Source of the DNA: Escherichia coli
GTDB taxonomy: Bacteria; Pseudomonadota; Gammaproteobacteria; Enterobacterales; Enterobacteriaceae
NCBI RefSeq assembly: GCF_041248615.1
Contig: NZ_CP158426.1
Length of the DNA stretch: 64,000 bases
Strand: one strand, 5' to 3'
The position numbers were made by a program. Positions 39,001 through 45,000 of this stretch are shown here, piece after piece. Positions within the stretch are counted from its first letter, which is position 1. Every line of letters starts with the position of its first letter.

Positions 39001-42000
39001 TGAACCTTATGAGCGGCATTTCAAAGAAATCGGATTTAATGAAAATACCATTAAAAAATATCTACAATGCACTAACATCCAGACAGTGACGGTGCCTGTT
39101 CCTGCGAAGTTTTTACGTGCTTCAAATGTACCGACTGGATTGCTTAATGAAATGATTGCTTATCTCAACTCGGAAGAACGCAATCATCATAATTTTTCAG
39201 AACTTTTGCTTTTTTCTTGCCTGTCTATTTTTGCCACATGCAAAGGTTTCATTACACTATTAACTAACGGTGTGCTATCCGTTTCCGGGAAAGTGAGAAA
39301 TATTGTCAACATGAAGCTGGCGCACCCATGGAAGCTGAAAGATATTTGTGACTGCCTGTACATCAGTGAAAGCCTGTTGAAGAAAAAACTTAAGCAAGAG
39401 CAAACGACATTCTCACAGATTCTTTTAGATGCCAGAATGCAGCACGCAAAAAATTTGATACGAGTAGAAGGTTCAGTTAATAAAATTGCCGAACAATGTG
39501 GTTATGCCAGTACATCTTATTTTATTTATGCGTTCCGCAAACATTTCGGCAACAGTCCGAAGAGAGTTTCTAAGGAGTACCGTTGTCAAAGGCACACCGG
39601 TATGAACACGGACAACACGATGAGTGCTTTAGCTATTTGATTATTTGCTAACGAGTAGTCAACCACACACGCTGCGTAAGAATTAAATGGGGCAGCCATT
39701 TCCTGCCCCGCGTTGTTTTTAGGCGATATATTTATTGAAATAAATAAGTGACATTCATCACATATTTATGCATTTGCATAACCCGTTGCATGATTATTTA
39801 TGATCTCAATTCGGCATTTTGTCAGTAAAATACAATATATTATTAAATATCAATAGATTAGTTGTTTATCATCGAGAAATTACTTAGTAGAACAGAAAGT
39901 AATGTCAACGCTTTATGGACTGTTATTTCCCTTTTTTTAGCTAAATCTGCTATCTATTTATGTGACTAACTTCACTTACATTCACTTATTTCTCTTCGTA
40001 AAATTACTTTGGAATTAAGTACAATAAGAAGAGGAACATTTATGAAGTCTGCATTAAAGAAAAGTGTCGTAAGTACCTCGATATCTTTGATACTGGCATC
40101 TGGTATGGCTGCATTTGCTGCTCATGCGGCAGATGATGTAAAGCTGAAAGCAACCAAAACAAACGTTGCTTTCTCAGACTTTACGCCGACTGAATACAGT
40201 ACCAAGGGAAAGCCAAATATTATCGTACTGACTATGGATGATCTTGGTTATGGACAACTTCCTTTTGATAAGGGATCTTTTGACCCAAAAACAATGGAAA
40301 ATCGTGAAGTTGTCGATACCTACAAAATAGGGATAGATAAAGCCATTGAAGCTGCGCAAAAATCAACGCCGACGCTCCTTTCATTAATGGATGATGGCGT
40401 ACGTTTTACTAACGGCTATGTGGCGCACGGTGTTTCCGGCCCCTCCCGCGCCGCAATAATGACCGGTCGAGCGCCCGCCCGCTTTGGTGTCTATTCCAAT
40501 ACCGATGCTCAGGATGGTATTCCGCTAACAGAAACTTTCTTGCCTGAATTATTCCAGAATCATGGTTATTACACTGCAGCAGTAGGTAAATGGCACTTGT
40601 CAAAAATCAGTAATGTGCCAGTACCGGAAGATAAACAAACGCGTGACTATCATGACAACTTCACCACCTATTCTGCGGAAGAATGGCAACCTCAAAACCG
40701 TGGCTTTGATTACTTTATGGGATTCCACGCTGCAGGAACGGCATATTACAACTCCCCTTCACTGTTCAAAAACCGTGAACGCGTCCCCGCAAAAGGTTAT
40801 ATCAGCGATCAGTTAACCGATGAGGCAATTGGCGTTGTTGATCGTGCCAAAACACTTGACCAGCCTTTTATGCTTTACCTGGCTTATAATGCTCCGCACC
40901 TGCCAAATGATAATCCTGCACCGGAGCAATATCAGAAGCAATTTAATACTGGTAGTCAAACAGCAGATAACTACTACGCTTCCGTTTATTCTGTTGATCA
41001 GGGTGTAAAACGCATTCTCGAACAACTGAAGAAAAACGGACAGTATGACAATACTATTATTCTCTTTACCTCCGATAATGGTGCGGTTATCGATGGTCCT
41101 CTGCCGCTGAACGGGGCGCAAAAAGGCTATAAGAGTCAGACTTATCCTGGCGGTACTCACACCCCAATGTTTATGTGGTGGAAAGGAAAACTTCAACCCG
41201 GTAATTATGACAAGCTGATTTCCGCAATGGATTTCTACCCGACAGCTCTTGATGCAGCCGATATCAGCATTCCAAAAGACCTTAAGCTGGATGGCGTTTC
41301 CTTGCTGCCCTGGTTGCAAGATAAGAAACAAGGCGAGCCACATAAAAATCTGACCTGGATAACCTCTTATTCTCACTGGTTTGATGAGGAAAATATTCCA
41401 TTCTGGGATAATTACCACAAATTTGTCCGTCATCAGTCAGACGATTACCCGCATAACCCCAACACCGAGGACTTAAGCCAATTCTCTTATACGGTGAGAA
41501 ATAACGATTATTCGCTAGTCTATACAGTAGAAAACAATCAGTTAGGTCTATACAAACTGACGGATCTACAGCAAAAAGATAACCTTGCCGCCGCCAATCC
41601 GCAGGTCGTTAAAGAGATGCAAGGCGTGGTAAGAGAGTTTATCGACAGCAGCCAACCACCGCTTAGCGAGGTAAATCAGGAGAAGTTTAACAATATCAAG
41701 AAAGCACTAAGCGAAGCGAAATAACTAAACCTTCATGCGGCGGATTTTTCCGCCGCCTTATTGAGCGAGATAGCGATGCACGTTACAGCCAAGCCCTCCA
41801 GTTTTCAATGTAATCTCAAATGTGATTACTGTTTTTACCTTGAAAAAGAGTCGCAGTTTACTCATGAAAAATGGATGGATGACAGCACTCTGAAAGAGTT
41901 CATCAAACAATATATCGCAGCGTCTGGCAATCAGGTCTATTTTACCTGGCAAGGCGGTGAACCCACTCTGGCTGGCCTGGCTTTTTTCCGTAAAGTTATT

Positions 42001-45000
42001 CACTATCAACAACGCTATGCCGGCCAAAAACGTATTTTTAATGCATTACAAACGAATGGCATTTTATTGAATAATGAATGGTGTGCCTTTCTCAAAGAAC
42101 ATGAGTTTCTGGTTGGTATTTCGATCGATGGACCCCAGGAGCTACATGACCGTTACAGACGCAGTAATTCAGGTAACGGTACTTTTGTAAAAGTGATAGC
42201 AGCCATCGAGCGTCTGAAATCATATCAAGTAGAGTTTAATACGTTAACCGTCATTAATAACGTTAATGTCCATTACCCTCTTGAGGTTTATCATTTTTTA
42301 AAATCCATCGGCAGTAAACATATGCAATTTATCGAATTGCTCGAAACCGGGACGCCGAATATTGATTTCAGTGGTCATAGTGAGAACACATTCCGTATCA
42401 TTGATTTTTCTGTGCCTCCTACGGCTTATGGCAAGTTTATGTCAACCATTTTTATGCAATGGGTTAAAAACGATGTGGGTGAAATTTTCATCCGTCAGTT
42501 TGAAAGCTTTGTCAGCCGTTTTTTGGGGAATGGGCATACCAGTTGTATTTTCCAGGAGTCCTGCAAGGATAATCTGGTTGTTGAAAGTAATGGAGACATT
42601 TACGAATGCGACCATTTTGTCTATCCACAGTACAAAATTGGAAACATTAATAAATCTGAACTCAAAACAATGAACAGTGTACAACTGACAGCGCAAAAAA
42701 AACGGATTTCAGCGAAATGTCAGCAATGTGCATATAAACCTATCTGCAATGGCGGTTGTCCTAAGCATCGTATTACTAAAGTAAACAATGAGACTGTTTC
42801 TTATTTTTGCGAAGGTTATAAAATCCTTTTTTCAACCATGGTACCTTATATGAACGCCATGGTGGAGTTAGCTAAGAACAGAGTACCGCTTTACCACATC
42901 ATGGATGTTGCAAAACAAATGGAGAATAATTAATAACGCTCCCTCTTAGCTCCAGTCTTAGCCTCCTTCTTATGACCTTAACAATGCACCCGACACATAT
43001 TCCTGTCGGGTGTTTCGTCATCATCATCTTCCCTTGCGAAAATCCTGGCTTACGTGGTATGCGTCAGGGCATTAGCAATATCCTTGATTATCAATAGCAT
43101 AACCATAACCACTGAAAATGAAATATTCCTTTATATTTCATATTGTTAAAGGATACTTAAATAAATTTCATCAGTAAATCATTGCCATAGATAATCATTG
43201 GATGGCACAATCAATTTTCGCTAATGATAACCATTCCCATTACGTTTCGTATGTTGATAGCAAAGTATCTCTGTCTGCTGAAGCCCTTTTGGCTGCGTAA
43301 GAATAATAAAACTTCAGTGTTGTTAATCATTATTATCCTCGCCATGATCCTTGGCGTGGTTAAAATTCAGGTCTGGTTAAACGACTGGAATAATGATTTT
43401 TTCAATGCGCTAAGCCAGAAAGAAACCGATAAGCTTTGGCAGCTTGTTCTTTGGTTCCCTGCCCTGCTGGGGATCTTTGTATTAATATCCGTAAACAAAA
43501 CATGGTTAATTAAACTACTGACTATTCGCTGGCGCGAATGGTTAACAGATTACTACCTTAATCGCTGGTTTGCAGATAAAAACTACTACTTCACGCAGAT
43601 CTACGGTGAGCATAAAAATACAGATAACCCTGACCAACGTATCGCTGAAGACATTCTCTTACTGATCAGCAAAACGCTCAGTCTTTCATTTGGCTTCATC
43701 CAGTCACTTAGCATGTTGATCACCTTTACCGTTATTCTTTGGCAAAGCGCGGGTACGCTCTCATTCACTGTTGGTGGAACAGAATGGAATATCCAGGGGT
43801 ATATGGTCTATACCGTTGTGCTCATTGTGATCGGTGGAACTTTATTTACTCATAAGGTTGGTAAACGTATTCGTCCGCTTAATGTGGAAAAACAACGTAG
43901 CGAAGCGACATTTCGAACTAATCTTGTGCAGCATAATAAGCAGGCAGAACTAATTGCGCTAAGCAATGCTGAGTCTTTACAACGCCAGGAGTTGAGCGAC
44001 AATTTTCATACCATTAAAGAGAACTGGCATCGTTTAATGAATCGTCAGCGCTGGCTTGATTACTGGCAGAATATTTATTCGCGCTCGCTTAGCGTTCTTC
44101 CCTACTTTCTGTTATTGCCACAGTTTATTAGCGGACAGATCAATCTGGGCGGACTGATGAAATCGCGTCAGGCATTTATGCTGGTATCGAACAATTTAAG
44201 CTGGTTTATTTATAAATATGACGAACTTGCTGAACTGGCTGCGGTTATCGATCGTTTGTATGAGTTCCATCAACTCACCGAACAGCGCCCTACGAATAAG
44301 CCTAAAAATTGCCAACATGCGGTACAAGTGGCTGACGCGAGTATTCGTACTCCTGATAATAAGATCATATTAGAGAACCTGAACTTTCATGTTTCGCCAG
44401 GCAAATGGCTATTACTGAAAGGTTACTCTGGTGCGGGAAAAACCACACTGCTTAAAACATTATCCCACTGCTGGCCGTGGTTCAAAGGTGATATTTCTTC
44501 TCCTGCTGACAGTTGGTATGTGTCACAAACACCGTTAATCAAAACCGGCTTACTGAAAGAGATTATTTGTAAAGCACTTCCCCTGCCCGTAGACGATAAA
44601 TCGTTGAGCGAAATACTGCATCAGGTTGGTCTGGGGAAATTGGCTGCGCGTATTCATGACCACGATCGCTGGGGAGATATTCTTTCCAGCGGCGAAAAAC
44701 AACGTATCGCCCTGGCACGATTAATTTTACGACGTCCGAAATGGATATTTCTTGACGAAACTACCTCTCATCTTGAGGAACAAGAGGCTATCCGCTTACT
44801 GCGTTTAGTGCGTGAAAAACTACCCACAAGCGGCGTCATTATGGTTACACATCAACCCGGTGTCTGGAACCTGGCTGATGATATTTGTGACATTAGCGCG
44901 GTTTTATAAAAACAATAAAAGCCCTGCTGTACGGAGATAAAAATAAATGAAGCGAGTTCTTATTCCTGGCGTCATTTTATGTGGCGCTGATGTGGCGCAG

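Follow-up and report, generated by a model that had tools for sequence, protein, structure and literature searches.

The ydeN-ydeM locus and its two products

The subject of this analysis is a pair of genes, ydeN and ydeM, in a stretch of 64,000 nucleotides of Escherichia coli DNA (contig NZ_CP158426.1), which as a whole is called the window below. Both genes lie on the plus strand and both frames are open from ATG to stop, without interruption. The first, ydeN (40042-41724), encodes a Ser-type S1 sulfatase of 560 amino acids that is predicted to be periplasmic. The second, ydeM (41776-42933), encodes a radical-SAM/SPASM anaerobic sulfatase-maturating enzyme (anSME) of 385 amino acids, predicted to be cytoplasmic. 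A preliminary description of the window had placed an intact pair at 40042-42933; the two open reading frames occupy exactly this interval and RefSeq agrees. TTG codons at 40009 (ydeN) and 41761 (ydeM) were tried as starts and rejected, because orthologues begin at the ATGs and because a Shine-Dalgarno sequence, AGAGG (40030-40034, plus strand), precedes the ATG at 40042.

Positions 39641-43223 are 100% identical to E. coli NRZ14408 and 98.7% identical to MG1655. On the identical NRZ14408 sequence, RefSeq labels ydeN as sulfatase-like hydrolase/transferase and ydeM as anaerobic sulfatase maturase. The MG1655 equivalents, b1498 (ydeN) and b1497 (ydeM), are labelled in that annotation as a putative sulfatase and a putative anaerobic sulfatase maturase, and they stand in the same gene neighbourhood (ydeP, safA, ydeO, ydeN, ydeM, yddA, yddB, pqqL). 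Compared with MG1655, ydeN carries 23 nucleotide and three amino acid changes (E118D, F210Y, D295E), ydeM carries 14 and three (D69A, A138V, P312S), and the 51-nt spacer between them is identical to that of K-12. The window is thus not K-12, since it differs from MG1655 in both genes and matches NRZ14408.

By family membership, YdeN is a full S1 sulfatase of the Ser type. The Pfam profile Sulfatase (PF00884) matches it with E=3.9e-70 over 301 of 301 profile positions, and because of this match the signature SGPSRAAIMTGR (40435-40470, plus strand) does not represent a chance similarity. The signature reads S132-G-P-S-R-AAIMTGR (residues 132-143), with Ser132 as the expected precursor of formylglycine. 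In HMMER alignments S132-GPSR falls onto the C-GPSR of the wild-type S1_19 sulfatases 9HH3 and 6BIA, and S132 itself falls onto the serine of 9HH2, the Ser-containing form of the 9HH3 enzyme. Remote homologues carry C/S-x-P-x-R at the same place. We searched 1.8 billion representatives of 50%-identity clusters; in the alignments listed, the position opposite S132 is occupied 137 times by Cys and 20 times by Ser, and several of these serines belong to fragments of YdeN itself. The preliminary description had staked its claim on a serine at the formylglycine position, and these alignments with the cysteines of known and remote sulfatases bear it out. Further, YdeN contains no cysteine at all, therefore formylglycine could come from serine only.

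The signature is invariant in 18 orthologues (70-84% identity). In a set of 36 homologues reaching down to 27% identity, seven positions never vary (D66, D67, R136, H185, H286, D345 and K364), and two more, K183 and N346, are at least 90% conserved. This conserved set (DD, K-x-H, H, D-N, K) comprises the canonical metal-binding and catalytic residues of S1 sulfatases. The AlphaFold model of YdeN has a predicted local distance difference test score (pLDDT) of 89.9, and its top matches in the PDB are all S1 sulfatases, with probability 1.00.

A signal peptide had also been noticed earlier, and the Sec-type features required for it are present. The predicted peptide spans residues 1-29 (40042-40128, plus strand) and reads MKSALKKSVVSTSISLILASGMAAFAAHA|AD. 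It has three lysines, its core is hydrophobic and it ends in the cleavage motif AHA (AHA|AD); there is no twin-arginine. We called it heuristically, from sequence features and hydropathy (15-residue Kyte-Doolittle maximum 1.83). AlphaFold renders the same segment as a low-confidence helix followed by a disordered linker, and the feature is kept in orthologues. The Lys-rich n-region, the hydrophobic core, the cleavage motif and the missing twin-arginine therefore indicate Sec export of YdeN.

YdeM reaches 501.8 bits with TIGR03942, the equivalog model of anaerobic sulfatase maturases (cutoff 349.45), over positions 1-362 of 363. It is the sole NCBIfam maturase model that YdeM passes; every listed peptide-maturase model stays below its cutoff. 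Pfam finds the domains Radical_SAM and SPASM. With the Clostridium perfringens enzyme anSMEcpe (4K36), YdeM aligns end to end (E=3e-62, 36% identity over 346 aligned residues). The radical-SAM motif C12-x3-C16-x2-C19 (41809-41832, plus strand) corresponds to C15, C19 and C22 of anSMEcpe. The auxiliary-cluster region (42544-42810, plus strand) contains C257, C263, C278, C315, C318, C324, C328 and C345 as well as D279. Taking the ligand lists of anSMEcpe from PMC5715301, we find that 11 of the 12 cysteines of YdeM map one-to-one onto ligands of its three [4Fe-4S] clusters. For Aux I, C257/C263/C278/C328 stand for C255/C261/C276/C330 and for Aux II, C315/C318/C324/C345 stand for C317/C320/C326/C348. 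D279 corresponds to D277 of anSMEcpe, and the GGE motif for binding of S-adenosylmethionine is present within a conserved QGGEPT. The auxiliary-cluster cysteines are kept in the full-length orthologues that were aligned. The N-terminus of YdeM shows no hydrophobic segment and no signal peptide.

What the preliminary description had seen in YdeM, a CxxxCxxC motif and a Cys-rich C-terminal region, is hence accounted for by C12/C16/C19 and eight further cysteines, and all eight positions of Aux I and Aux II, on which it had made its reading depend, are matched in anSMEcpe. Its central proposal, a sulfatase paired with a radical-SAM maturase, is supported by PF00884, by TIGR03942 and by the residue alignments.

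The cassette in other genomes, its spacer and its upstream region

The pair belongs to the core of E. coli: of 5426 complete genomes, 5322 carry both genes at a coverage of at least 80%, among them K-12, BL21, O157:H7, ST131 and an avian pathogenic (APEC) strain. The ratio of nonsynonymous to synonymous substitution rates (dN/dS) against K-12 is 0.040 for ydeN and 0.066 for ydeM, similar to neighbouring genes. The pair is under strong purifying selection.

We compared seven cassettes, that of E. coli and those of Yersinia similis, Aeromonas veronii, Leminorella, Iodobacter, Vibrio mimicus and a Proteus mirabilis contig. The order sulfatase-then-maturase with a spacer of 45-69 nt is found in all seven, and all seven sulfatases are free of cysteine. 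The sulfatase is better conserved across them (64-84% identity) than the maturase (51-68%). The flanks are unrelated. For example, the A. veronii cassette adjoins a phage-type integrase, the P. mirabilis contig is plasmid-like, with Rep3, MobA and a toxin-antitoxin pair, the V. mimicus cassette lies between a GH31 and a beta-helix gene, and the Leminorella cassette lies near GH4. The same two-gene order amid unrelated flanks means that the cassette moves as a unit. A functional link of ydeNM to ydeO, yddA, yddB and pqqL was also considered; we rejected it because the flanks of orthologous cassettes in other genera are completely different.

The surroundings in V. mimicus (contig L011, 572-10873) hold genes for GH31, a beta-helix protein, a DUF2264 protein, an AraC-family regulator and a TRAP DctP component. 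By gene content they look like a glycan-utilisation cluster, perhaps a clue to the kind of substrate.

Plasmids of E. coli, Proteus, Providencia, Vibrio and Klebsiella carry YdeN-type genes as well. A Ser-type plasmid paralogue of ydeN, 77% identical and 565 amino acids long, is present in at least 13 E. coli plasmid records (H71-H83; L013 3847-5544). In the two contigs examined (L013 and L014) its neighbours are an OmpC-like porin gene directly ahead of it and an IS110 element behind it. A tblastn search of contig L013 revealed no maturase remnant beside it. With no maturase next to it, the paralogue would therefore need YdeM or AslB in trans.

The base composition around the locus is uneven. 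G+C drops to 0.34-0.39 at 38250-40250 (ydeO and the ydeO-ydeN spacer) and at 42000-43500 (3' half of ydeM), against 0.51-0.55 in central ydeP. Judged by composition, this pattern is consistent with horizontally acquired DNA.

The spacer between ydeN and ydeM contains a stem-loop at 41737-41756 (plus strand), situated between the stop of the former and the start of the latter. It reads GCGGCGGA-UUUU-UCCGCCGC, forms eight G-C-rich pairs and is followed by CUUAUU. The E. coli spacer folds with a minimum free energy of -18.7 kcal/mol (z = -3.25). A stable G+C-rich hairpin sits at the same position in seven of seven cassettes, with unrelated sequences (the other spacers being L003 5944-6000, L005 5943-6000, L009 4952-5000, L010 4932-5000, L011 4942-5000 and L012 1845-1889). 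The z-scores of the cassette hairpins range from -3.3 to -5.1, and at most three of 500 dinucleotide shuffles fold equally well. In the Leminorella and Proteus cassettes the hairpin is succeeded by a T-run. When 39600-43300 was scanned against Rfam, isrK was the only match and stayed below threshold (20 bits, with a gathering score of 50), and the hairpin fell into no family; nor is any small peptide gene evident in the 51-nt spacer. From its position and stability we suggest that the hairpin is likely a leaky terminator or an element stabilising the mRNA, so that more sulfatase than maturase would be made.

At the 5' side the ydeNM unit is bounded by a putative intrinsic terminator of ydeO (39688-39720, plus strand), which has an 8-bp stem with six G-C pairs followed by CGTTGTTTTT. 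A consensus scan recognized a sigma-70 promoter-like site of ydeN at 39975-40004 (plus strand): CTTACA, a spacer of 18 nt and TAAAAT, with 9 of 12 matches. Taken as a whole, the region shows no enrichment of such consensus matches. Two candidate CRP sites, both on the plus strand, precede ydeN. The first, AGTGACATTCATCACA (39747-39762), has one mismatch to TGTGA-N6-TCACA. The second, TGTGACTAACTTCACT (39961-39976), adjoins the promoter-like site; its midpoint lies about 42 bp upstream of the inferred transcription start, as placed from the promoter-like -10 hexamer, an arrangement resembling class II. Two of the three CRP-consensus matches in the window fall into the 401-bp ydeO-ydeN spacer; about 1.8 would be expected in the whole 64 kb. 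The core half-sites of both are unchanged in K-12. Two such sites upstream would fit a carbon-scavenging gene.

Published work contributes several points about expression. ydeN is a CRP target as predicted by systematic evolution of ligands by exponential enrichment (SELEX; PMC3105977), and it is co-transcribed with ydeM (PMC10878103, PMC3738151). According to the latter two papers, AraC occupies a site upstream of ydeN when arabinose is present and not otherwise, and expression rises on deletion of araC. Published data further describe the level of ydeN mRNA as responsive to conditions, with a change of more than 30-fold, and at pH 4.4 the transcript goes down about 2^5-fold together with mal and xyl genes. 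When we searched for the AraC half-site TAGC-N7-TCCATA with at most two mismatches, the window gave fewer matches than chance and the ydeN upstream spacer gave none; the site reported in the literature was thus not located by the half-site pattern.

A further feature overlapping the pair is a neighbour outside the sulfatase system, yneP. This 40-codon reading frame (42899-43021, minus strand) runs antisense to ydeM and shares its last 35 nt on the opposite strand. It is labelled protein YneP (b4747) in MG1655 and hypothetical protein in NRZ14408.

A proposed maturation model and its alternatives

We propose that the region is the ydeN-ydeM operon, a self-contained module of a periplasmic Ser-type sulfatase and the radical-SAM enzyme that would activate it; to this reading we give a probability of roughly 85%. 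The observations under it are the intact genes, the families to which the products belong, the places of the motifs, their conservation, the selection on the genes and the synteny. In the proposed model, ydeN and ydeM would be transcribed together from an apparently CRP-dependent promoter. YdeM would remain in the cytoplasm, equipped with three [4Fe-4S] clusters, one of the radical-SAM type and two auxiliary, and would bind the unfolded precursor of YdeN at S132-G-P-S-R. Splitting of S-adenosylmethionine would then generate a 5'-deoxyadenosyl radical that takes the C-beta hydrogen from Ser132. As the electron leaves via the auxiliary clusters, C-alpha-formylglycine would result, and no oxygen would be required. 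Modified YdeN would subsequently be exported via Sec and lose its signal peptide. After YdeN has reached the periplasm, a sulfate ester, most probably on a sulfated sugar, would be hydrolysed by the hydrated aldehyde together with K183/H185/H286/K364 and a divalent metal bound by D66/D67/D345/N346. The chemical steps, the sequence of maturation and then export, and the class of substrate are drawn by analogy from AtsB, anSMEcpe and S1 sulfatases.

Several facts weigh against this proposal. The literature consulted terms AslB and YdeM "putative" maturases and attributes the maturation of Cys-type sulfatases in E. coli to a third, unidentified system (PMC8379841, and the title of Benjdia et al. 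2007). Among database entries of E. coli ydeM there are short ones (P0007, P0011): one has 351 amino acids, starts at M34 and lacks CxxxCxxC, another has 320 amino acids and a scrambled C-terminus without Aux II. These short forms may be lineage-specific defects or artefacts of annotation. In one genome (H50) IS2 is inserted in ydeM. The maturase may thus have disappeared from some lineages. Finally, YdeN orthologues stand apart as a clade: identities leave a gap from about 70% to 45%, the next relatives being at 45% or below, and substrate specificity is therefore not transferable from characterised enzymes.

One could imagine that E. coli carries both genes in a cryptic or decaying state, in which they look intact but contribute no function any more. 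The putative annotation of both products in MG1655 would suit this idea, as would the shortened ydeM entries, the IS2-disrupted copy and the low G+C of the locus (about 0.38-0.46), which is common for foreign DNA. Nevertheless, genes on the way to loss would hardly show dN/dS values of 0.04 and 0.07, as low as those of neighbouring genes, nor be kept as a pair in 98% of complete genomes from diverse strains; the catalytic and cluster residues are all intact and the ydeN transcript varies more than 30-fold by condition. We consider decay improbable. Slightly less credit still goes to the idea that YdeN depends on formylglycine and yet is no true sulfatase, but hydrolyses phosphonate monoesters or phosphodiesters like some S1_0 members of the alkaline-phosphatase superfamily. 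SulfAtlas does list phosphonate monoester hydrolases within family S1, and YdeN has a weaker Pfam match to Phosphodiest (PF01663, E=3.1e-7) and a weak NCBIfam match to PehA. However, the PF00884 score is far above that of PF01663, all close neighbours of known activity in sequence or structure are carbohydrate sulfatases (S1_19, S1_16, S1_11, S1_15), and orthologous cassettes have GH31 (Vibrio) or GH4 (Leminorella) at their side.

The third alternative concerns the partnership itself. YdeM might mainly serve another client, be it AslA, the plasmid paralogue of YdeN or a peptide of the kind that related SPASM enzymes modify, with YdeN being matured by AslB or the third system. E. coli does possess a second Ser-type pair, AslA (SSPTR) with AslB, and the plasmid paralogue, having no adjacent maturase, must be served in trans. 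Moreover, YdeM scores on models for maturases of RiPPs, peptides made on the ribosome and modified after translation (216 bits for DynA, 164 bits for DarW). Both scores are below cutoff, though, while TIGR03942 is the sole model passed; the 51-nt spacer holds no evident small peptide gene, and a maturase gene follows the YdeN-type sulfatase gene in seven of seven cassettes despite their unrelated flanks. We regard this exchange of partners as the least probable of the three.

Its significance should be put soberly. Both genes are already named, annotated and published, and because of that the finding, though correct, is ordinary and brings nothing new. Judging by the references cited in the part of the literature consulted, the pair has figured in work on sulfatase maturation since the late 1990s. 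What YdeN desulfates, and whether YdeM matures it, would bear on how E. coli in the anaerobic gut makes use of sulfated glycans from host or diet, a use on which one paper already speculates (PMC10878103). Practical starting points are the Cys-free clade with its invariant Ser-type signature, the mobility of the cassette, the conserved intercistronic hairpin, the CRP-like sites and the structural neighbours acting on galactose-4-sulfate.

We can combine these points into a speculative picture, which we hold to be possible but rather doubtful. The cassette would be a mobile, self-sufficient module that desulfates a galacto-configured 4-O-sulfated sugar (GalNAc-4-sulfate, that is N-acetylgalactosamine-4-sulfate, or carrageenan-type oligosaccharides) from host or dietary glycans. 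If this were true, CRP would switch expression on in carbon scavenging and AraC with arabinose would switch it off, the conserved hairpin would set a high ratio of sulfatase to maturase, and E. coli would possess an anaerobic path to the sulfated glycans of the gut that has so far been overlooked.

The substrate and the nearest known systems

In sequence, the best relatives of YdeN are S1_19 carrageenan sulfatases (E=2.8e-52 to 1e-42), with S1_16 enzymes next. Foldseek likewise ranks S1_19 structures first, with E of about 1e-37, a template modelling (TM) score of 0.81 on target and 26-28% identity; the reference structures are ZgCgsA (9HH2/9HH3), Ps i-CgsB (6B0J/6BIA) and PsS1_19B (6PSM). Characterised members of S1_19 and S1_16 act on 4-O-sulfated galactose or GalNAc. 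A SulfAtlas assignment of YdeN was not found in PMC5066984. Because S1_19 and S1_16 are the nearest relatives, and because glycoside hydrolase genes flank the Vibrio and Leminorella cassettes, the substrate of YdeN is likely a sulfated sugar; to name an exact one would be a guess.

The S1_19 carrageenan sulfatases have the fold and the catalytic residues in common with YdeN. They differ in being Cys-type, marine and about 100 residues shorter. YdeN, for its part, has an extra conserved segment at residues 74-108 or so, between the DD motif and the signature, and a longer C-terminus.

The proposed logic of the pair is that of AtsA/AtsB of Klebsiella pneumoniae, established as a periplasmic Ser-type sulfatase beside a three-cluster radical-SAM maturase. 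AtsB is a SPASM member with two auxiliary clusters (PMC5715301). Neither AtsA nor AtsB was among the matches listed for the two proteins. In contrast to AtsA, the nearest characterised relatives of YdeN are carbohydrate sulfatases and not arylsulfatases.

In the case of C. perfringens anSMEcpe (PDB 4K36-4K39), the cysteine ligands of all three clusters, GGE and D277 are conserved in YdeM. With the NCBIfam model NF010321, on the other hand, YdeM scores just 252.7 bits (cutoff 441). The native client of anSMEcpe is a Cys-type sulfatase, unlike the presumed Ser-type client of YdeM.

The closest parallel within E. coli itself is AslA/AslB, a second Ser-type sulfatase (SSPTRATILTGQ, SSPTR) with an anSME homologue. 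In MG1655, SSPTRATILTGQ of aslA (L008 1453-3108, minus strand) aligns with the signature of YdeN; AslA is thus Ser-type also, and E. coli therefore has two pairs of a Ser-type sulfatase and an anSME. YdeM and AslB share 41% identity, whereas YdeN and AslA share only 27%. Against model NF010308 (412 positions) YdeM obtains 362.7 bits and does not reach the cutoff of 484. The two systems differ in layout as well, aslA and aslB being convergent, while ydeN and ydeM stand in tandem.

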